Of a DNA stretch of 64,000 bases, positions 59,732-60,034 are shown in pieces (the stretch's first letter is position 1; each line of letters opens with the position of its first letter). Position numbers and translations under genes: made by a program. The notes beneath the pieces were generated by a model that made no database searches, was not told where the DNA came from, and was given only the letters and a program-made list of their open reading frames with translations. This DNA is from Octopus vulgaris. Lineage: Eukaryota. The DNA lies in assembly GCA_951406725.2 (NCBI GenBank), contig OX597824.1, forward strand, positions 97,774,001 to 97,838,000, given 5' to 3'.

Positions 59732-60034
59732 TAATAATAAATATTAGGGAATAAATCCAAATTTACAGGGAAAATCAGATTTAGGATTGAATCCAATTTT
59801 ATAGTAAAATATTATATAATATTAATTAGAGACAAAACCACTACACTTCATAACTTAAAATAGAATAGAAGATCTGAAATCCACCTGATGAATGTCCTGA
59901 GAAGAGACATGAAACAATTGTAGTGGCGAATATAATTTTATTTAATTTATATTAATTTTTTTTTATATATTGGATTAAGTCTTTCTTTGTTTGATTTGCA
60001 AAATAGTGGTTTTGTCTCTAATTAATATTATATA
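59732..60034 (+). mobile_element. Short Penelope-terminal-repeat-like element with 31-bp inverted repeats enclosing a hammerhead
   Basis: tatataatattaattagagacaaaaccacta (59813-59843) is exactly complementary to 60004-60034; embedded in (TA)n. Confidence 0.65.
59881..59926 (+). ncRNA. Intact minimal type-I hammerhead ribozyme motif
   Basis: ccac CTGATGA atgtc ctgagaaga gacat GAAA caattg TA gtgg. 4-bp stem I, perfect core, 5-bp stem II, palindromic ACAATTGT stem III, GUA cleavage triplet. Confidence 0.82.

Follow-up and report, generated by a model that had tools for sequence, protein, structure and literature searches.

The keeping of introns by Penelope-like elements (PLEs), the formation of their head-to-head inverted ends and the use of their hammerhead ribozymes are stated to be open in the available text of two reports (PMC8557442, PMC3846280), the second of which could not choose between antisense RNA and unspliced sense RNA as the template. 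For PAc, a Poseidon element, the available text of the relevant study (PMC11167929) describes a protein that cuts and extends both strands, with reverse transcription (RT) from two internal sites defining the tail; the protein is predicted to be a dimer, and the PAc hammerhead cuts only with the protein.

Here we describe a 303-bp insert in a 64,000-nucleotide stretch of Octopus vulgaris DNA, referred to as the window, together with the family of genomic copies to which it belongs. As part of the best explanation, the insert very probably consists of two 5'-leader arms of a Hydra-type PLE. A preliminary description, made from the window alone, had proposed a Penelope-like insertion into (TA)n with an inverted partial terminal repeat generated at integration, and these proposals are borne out: (TA)n lies on both flanks, a parent with an RT and GIY-YIG ORF was identified, and the repeat is of the kind envisaged. 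As a single locus the insert is ordinary, being a dead integration product of known kind.

The insert, its family and its parent element

The coordinates of the two arms and their features are collected in Table 1. Arm 1 is identical to the natural leader of locus L070 at 111/112 positions. The two copies of the inverted repeat are perfect over 31 nt, as had been seen at the outset, with the six outer nucleotides (TATATA) of the right one indistinguishable from the flanking (TA)n. The focal element contains no genuine ORF, again in agreement with the preliminary description, its three overlapping ATG frames (40-51 aa) being mostly (TA)n translation.

Table 1. Features of the 303-bp insert and its flanks, in window positions
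Feature	Position	Strand	Remark
(TA)n target microsatellite, left flank	59696..59731	no strand	
Arm 1: 112-nt inverted piece, from end A (59732) back through the tail plus 31 nt shared with arm 2	59732..59843	-	
81-nt tail, end B to end A	59732..59812	-	
31-bp inverted repeat, left arm (overlap of both arms)	59813..59843	-	
31-bp inverted repeat, right arm	60004..60034	+	
Exon 1, 27 nt, beginning at the inferred transcription start	59845..59871	+	identical to L070 exon 1
Exact splice junction; the parent's 1,144-nt GT-AG intron is absent	59871..59872	+	
Exon 2 part of arm 2, to fixed end B, whose position (about 60029-60034) is obscured by TA	59872..60034	+	
Type I hammerhead, uncleaved in the focal copy; predicted cut 59922/59923	59881..59926	+	
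Palindromic stem III ACAATTGT, predicted dimer helix	59914..59921	+	sister subfamily has the ACGATCGT type
(TA)n target microsatellite, right flank	60035..60126	no strand	

The element is repeated, with at least 110 genome matches when 40 of 1,836 candidates were scored, and one 32-mer of the arm occurs in 1,069 exact copies. The copies share a structure in which two head-to-head arms face outward. Each outer end falls at one of two fixed points, end A or end B, which lie 81 nt from each other, whereas the inner ends are variable. Arms end in (TA)n in 95/99 cases, end A recurs in 45/99 arms, and 37/44 head-to-head pairs combine one end A with one end B. A pLTR-like direct or inverted arrangement with a tail is present in the family, the tail being 81 nt as against the 30-40 bp described. 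The inverted repeat measures about 21-184 nt, or is undetected, among the 30 mapped loci from which its lengths were taken (another length computation, spoiled by (TA)n, was dropped). Since the inner ends vary, the repeat is only the overlap of the arms, and what had been described as a frame for the ribozyme is a chance overlap whose length differs between copies. Some insertions have been copied within segmental duplications, as shared breakpoints or flanks indicate (L208-L211; C15:56708396-56727544; L300/L301; L318/L319; L096-L098).

A search for the parent PLE, suggested in the preliminary description, led to open ORFs of 820-851 aa encoding RT plus a GIY-YIG domain at the C terminus (L235, L236 and L238). 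Motifs recognized by eye are YRDD and DKT in the RT and VVYK..YIG in the EN; the protein is 36-44% identical to full-length database homologues, and it gave no RT or GIY-YIG match in Pfam and no match in the PDB. In L235 and L236 the ATG lies about 55 nt past end A (in L236 the leader ends at 3354 and the ORF starts at 3410), and the L236 unit is about 6.3 kb long. The L236 protein has, in addition to DKT, a CxCX5C linker and CxxC and CxH around the E and N of the EN, with no CCHH seen; at the place of the N-terminal RWK the parent has KWK, and P0001, P0003 and P0004 have RWK or RWR at the aligned place. By DKT, CxCX5C, CxxC and CxH and its (TA)n target the family fits the Hydra clade of C-terminal EN+ PLEs. 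The RT-EN interval contains an Asn-rich (AAT)n insert that is long and differs in length between copies (L234 ORF; L235:3714-6266 and L236:3410-5929, in oriented coordinates); N-rich inserts in PLE ORFs are described in the available text of PMC3846280. The leader and some of the L112 ORF are represented in contigs from four presumed-RNA runs, which do not show the start, strand, splicing or cut.

Splice state and polarity of the copied RNA

In L070 a 1,144-nt intron (GTATGT at its donor, TTTTTAG at its acceptor) separates the 27 nt that open the arm from exon 2, and the focal copy joins exon 1 to exon 2 exactly. The donor GT is found in 18/20 long copies and the acceptor AG in 16/17 long copies with a hammerhead match. 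Exact junctions genome-wide comprise 149 spliced and 54 unspliced, the intron being lost from 149/203; intron retention, a PLE trait, is absent from the focal copy and from these 149 junctions, and the intron is kept in long copies. Nearly all spliced arms (119/120) begin no more than 35 nt above the donor, 22/120 at the initiator A, and none of the 120 reaches the ORF. Arm 2 of the focal copy itself begins at the A of TCA(+1)CTTC (59845), a motif that we take to be an initiator-like (Inr) sequence, which would make this A the transcription start. As this hammerhead arm lacks the intron and begins at an initiator-like A, it is therefore read as a copy of spliced sense RNA. Arm ends below the start site show trimming of 0-16 nt.

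One spliced arm (L206:847-1377) reaches 337 nt above the main start, which points to spliced read-through or upstream-started RNA as a further template. An untemplated G stands just ahead of arms beginning at the cut or the start in L249, L251, L326, L027 and L231, possibly through RT run-off or cap copying; an extra G before the start site, considered as a copy of the cap, was found at 4/14 unexplained junctions and was too weak to use.

Partner arms agree in splice state. Across C1-C16, where both junction lists are complete and pairs were counted by eye, 18 independent pairs were spliced/spliced (20 before a triplicate was collapsed) and four unspliced/unspliced, with 0/22 mixed (P about 2e-5 under independent draw). 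The test rests on these complete lists; a separate hand-picked pair set, whose 10 unspliced/unspliced pairs represent seven independent events (L208-L211 share breakpoints), was set aside. Partner arms also share rare variants at L157, L194 and L203. At L311 (578-870) an identical ~145 nt of non-element sequence precedes exon 2 on its 5' side in both arms, which therefore appear to derive from one chimeric transcript, the leader joined to a host flank or exon, that was copied twice; L295 resembles it, with ~150 nt of foreign 5' sequence, and the chimeras suggest 5' transduction from truncated copies. The concordance of splice state and variants fits the in vitro behaviour of PAc, in which both strands are cut and extended and two RT sites bound the tail; it could also arise by gene conversion after insertion or by fold-back copying. 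Arm lengths are only partly coupled, since 8/29 two-anchor pairs, as against 14 under independence (P=0.014), combine an arm that reaches above the cut with one that stops below the cut.

If one cDNA had folded back and copied itself, or if antisense RNA had primed itself, as is proposed for head-to-head repeats and intron retention in the available text of PMC3846280, two target-primed starts would be unnecessary, and the near-identity and concordance of the arms would follow, as would the perfect-palindrome junctions of some copies (L050). We consider these origins improbable, including the variant in which a sense cDNA folds back and then suffers an inner deletion. Fold-back predicts a common hairpin tip, whereas one arm of the focal copy ends long before the other (112 vs 190 nt), as happens in many copies, and the outer ends differ in the fixed A/B pattern. 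The missing intron is GT-AG on the sense strand, which is also the strand of the initiator and of the hammerhead cut at which arms stop, and an antisense template leaves these features unexplained; the RNA copied was therefore of sense polarity, contrary to the antisense model proposed in PMC3846280.

Our preferred account, held with considerable confidence, is that of two head-to-head leader arms that likely arose from one integration in which both cut target strands primed RT of the same spliced RNA. The element protein, probably dimeric, would nick both (TA)n strands; from a primer at site B the cDNA would run to the capped 5' end over 190 nt, and from a primer at site A it would halt after 112 nt. 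Microhomology repair would join the two cDNA 3' ends, with the 31-bp inverted repeat as the residual overlap. The hammerhead would remain uncut on the focal template and, family-wide, would cut part of the RNA, as a dimer or with protein help.

The abundance of short copies could also be taken to indicate a self-propagating non-autonomous element of about 270 nt, SINE- or retrozyme-like, with a functional hammerhead framed by a hairpin, and it is clear from L311 and L295 that RNAs bearing foreign 5' sequence can serve as templates. This is very unlikely: no hairpin is fixed, the overlap varying in length; within the element, pairing of stem I is not predicted; and the short copies follow the subfamilies of the long intron-bearing copies and begin at the parent's start site. 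Nor do the focal copy and the mapped loci contain the tandem head-to-tail hammerhead units by which retrozymes are recognized (10.64898/2026.07.22.740005, available text). The solo or non-autonomous PLE of the preliminary description is instead the spliced 5' leader of an autonomous element, copied into DNA, and a solo formed by recombination was likewise rejected. The focal copy is likely a dead end, because it is without an upstream promoter, intron and ORF.

The hammerhead and its predicted cleavage site

The focal hammerhead has its CTGATGA core at 59885-59891 and GAAA at 59911-14, with stem I CCAC/GTGG, stem II ATGTC/GACAT (59892-96/59906-10) and a GUA cleavage triplet, so that the CUGANGA, GAAA, NUH and three helices of a type I hammerhead are all present. 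The complete core, perfect stems I and II, self-complementary stem III and cut after 59922 given in the preliminary description were confirmed. A strict descriptor (stem I at least 4, stem II at least 5, Watson-Crick pairs only) matched once in the real window and in none of 100 block-shuffled windows. For the focal sequence Rfam returned nothing at gathering score and no hammerhead family at E<=10, and covariance models therefore give no support.

Folding predicts the long stem from the inverted repeat (z -7.9), as had been proposed, and does not predict a ribozyme folded in its loop, because in the whole-element fold the pairing probability is 0.01-0.02 for stem I and 0.02 for stem III. In an isolated 91-nt piece stem I is predicted to form (0.9) and stem III remains at 0.03; poor folding is predicted for the focal copy in monomeric form. 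Its earlier ranking as the best candidate in the window for a competent ribozyme is not sustained, given that the focal 46-nt hammerhead has 50 exact copies in the genome (itself and 49 others), that its monomer stem III is improbable, that its A-U at 10.1-11.1 is unconserved, and that the window contains another hammerhead, at 42725 (-), in which stem I is 6 bp long and the cleavage site is GUC. This second sequence, also of type I (window 42686-42731, minus strand), has a 5-bp stem II and a palindromic stem III, and is located upstream, by 300-800 nt, of remnants of an RT thumb and a GIY-YIG domain at 41910-42401 (-). With a Neptune-like PLE in L097, of a PLE family different from the focal one, the remnants share 58-59% identity.

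Conservation of the core among genomic copies, to which the preliminary description had attached weight, is evident: in 33 aligned copies, located via the ORF or intron and so independently of the hammerhead (one row is misaligned), the core is 98% conserved, stem I 97%, inner stem II 98%, loop II 56% and the flanks 77%. Selection on the hammerhead core is supported by this alignment. The G10.1-C11.1 pair, a conserved hammerhead feature according to the available text of PMC4209133, is missing, the focal copy having A-U and other subfamilies A.C, A.A, U-A or U.U; the commonest subfamily has A.C, in 58/213 contexts, and the A.C or mismatched states argue for weak catalysis. Stem III is predicted to form a dimer duplex at -6.4 kcal/mol, and in 13/213 contexts it carries a double change to another palindrome, which permits pairing only between two molecules; dimeric stem III pairing is proposed in the available text of PMC4209133. 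A further subfamily (L280, L282, L284, L289, L294) has a much longer stem II/loop II insert, with the core and palindromic stem III unchanged, and at L246 and L313 the arms are joined inside or beside the stem III palindrome.

The focal arm spans the hammerhead, and its template RNA was uncut. Elsewhere in the genome, the 30-mer beginning at the cut occurs in 216 arms, 197 of which also carry the five bases before the cut; inspection of 12 of the other 19 found eight arms that begin at the cut (five cleanly, three within 2 nt) and four point mutants. In a second subfamily 3/3 matches of a targeted search begin at the cut, giving 11 cut-starting arms from targeted searches in two subfamilies, three of them with an extra G. 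A first sample, selected for an intact hammerhead, contained 0/233 arm starts at the cut and was replaced by a set picked by a downstream anchor regardless of the hammerhead (all 90 arms on C1 and 9/10 listed on C2). Of these 99 arms, 33 (30 without segmental duplicates) begin at -2..+15 of the cut, compared with about 8-10 expected from flanking rates, in a window of positions that was set after data inspection and with automated end calls that contain errors (e.g. L266, L276, L293, L313). None of the 99 begins at +1..+3, and most ends lie at +4..+15 rather than at 0.

Because many sibling arms begin at or just past the cut, the family hammerhead is likely to cleave some of the RNA in vivo, a reading that we favour with some reserve. 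A possible, though less probable, account keeps the same origin and dispenses with cutting in vivo, the arm ends near the hammerhead being due instead to RT stalling at folded RNA or to an AT-rich self-complementary stretch, just past the hammerhead, favouring microhomology joins. Such an account accommodates the excess of ends at +4..+15, with its peak at a TTAATT motif common to the partner arm, as well as the predicted instability of stem III in the monomer and the loss of the 10.1-11.1 pair. It also accords with available text in which metazoan PLE hammerheads cleave poorly in vitro (PMC4209133), PAc RNA-seq has no reads at the cut and PAc core mutants insert normally (PMC11167929). It is harder to reconcile with the 11 arms of two subfamilies that begin at the cut and the absence of starts at +1..+3 in the anchor sample. 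The sequence at +16..+43 is 100% AT, yet the end rate is 0.79%/nt at +16..+30 as against 3.05%/nt at +4..+15, and the ends past the cut form a shoulder equal in width to the trimming seen below the start site.

With in vivo cutting included, the family copies would record three states of sense RNA, namely unspliced, spliced and capped, and hammerhead-cleaved; a dimeric RT would have copied each of them on both target strands, starting at two fixed sites. We give this fuller reading an even chance.

Significance and comparison with described elements

The value of these observations lies in the family and not in the locus, in that they argue against an antisense-template model and offer a genomic readout of ribozyme cutting. 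The long leader intron, mappable start and more than 1,000 young arms make template polarity, splice state and 5' end readable from DNA, and the intact ORFs allow an in vitro system. If the three-state reading is true, up to a third of arms would come from ribozyme-cut RNA, which would be direct genomic evidence of in vivo Penelope hammerhead cutting. Cutting and splicing would then divert the leader into dead stubs, full copies arising only from uncut, unspliced read-through RNA, such that 'intron retention' would reflect survival and not mechanism, and the antisense-template model would be wrong for this clade. In the open literature searched, neither spliced genomic copies of a PLE nor copies beginning at the hammerhead cut were seen to be described.

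The comparisons that follow refer to the available parts of the cited texts. Non-LTR retrozymes (Li et al. 2026 preprint, 10.64898/2026.07.22.740005) are, like the focal insert, short and non-coding, with a type I hammerhead and an origin from PLE pLTRs; they form head-to-tail tandem arrays, whereas the focal insert is a head-to-head, two-arm structure with one hammerhead. Penelope of Drosophila virilis (Schostak et al. 2008, PMC2377424; Cervera and de la Pena 2014, PMC4209133) likewise has its start and a 5'-UTR intron inside the pLTR, an intron end adjoining the hammerhead, a palindromic stem III and variable inverted terminal repeats. Its intron, however, is 75 nt long and is described as retained in transposition, in contrast to the 1,144-nt octopus intron with its loss from most junctions.

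PAc, from Anolis carolinensis (Frangieh et al. 2024, PMC11167929), shares two internal RT sites, an AT-rich target, use of both strands and an uncleaved template with the octopus family. It belongs to another clade, and its ORF begins inside the hammerhead, whereas the octopus leader is wholly non-coding. The PAc text has no RNA ends at the PAc cut and contains no splicing evidence, whereas octopus genomic arms do begin at the cut.

With the Hydra clade (Craig et al. 2021, PMC8557442) the family shares DKT, CxCX5C and CxxC/CxH, with no CCHH seen, as well as a hammerhead in the pLTR, a (TA)n target and an inverted 5'-truncated pLTR with a tail. The octopus parent differs in having KWK rather than RWK, a unit of about 6.3 kb rather than <3 kb and a tail of 81 nt rather than 30-40, and its family is further set apart by the 1.1-kb leader intron, the Asn-rich ORF insert and junction-spanning copies that are mostly spliced. 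Unlike the textbook picture, the family has lost the intron from the majority of its junction-spanning copies, and many copies begin at the ribozyme cut.
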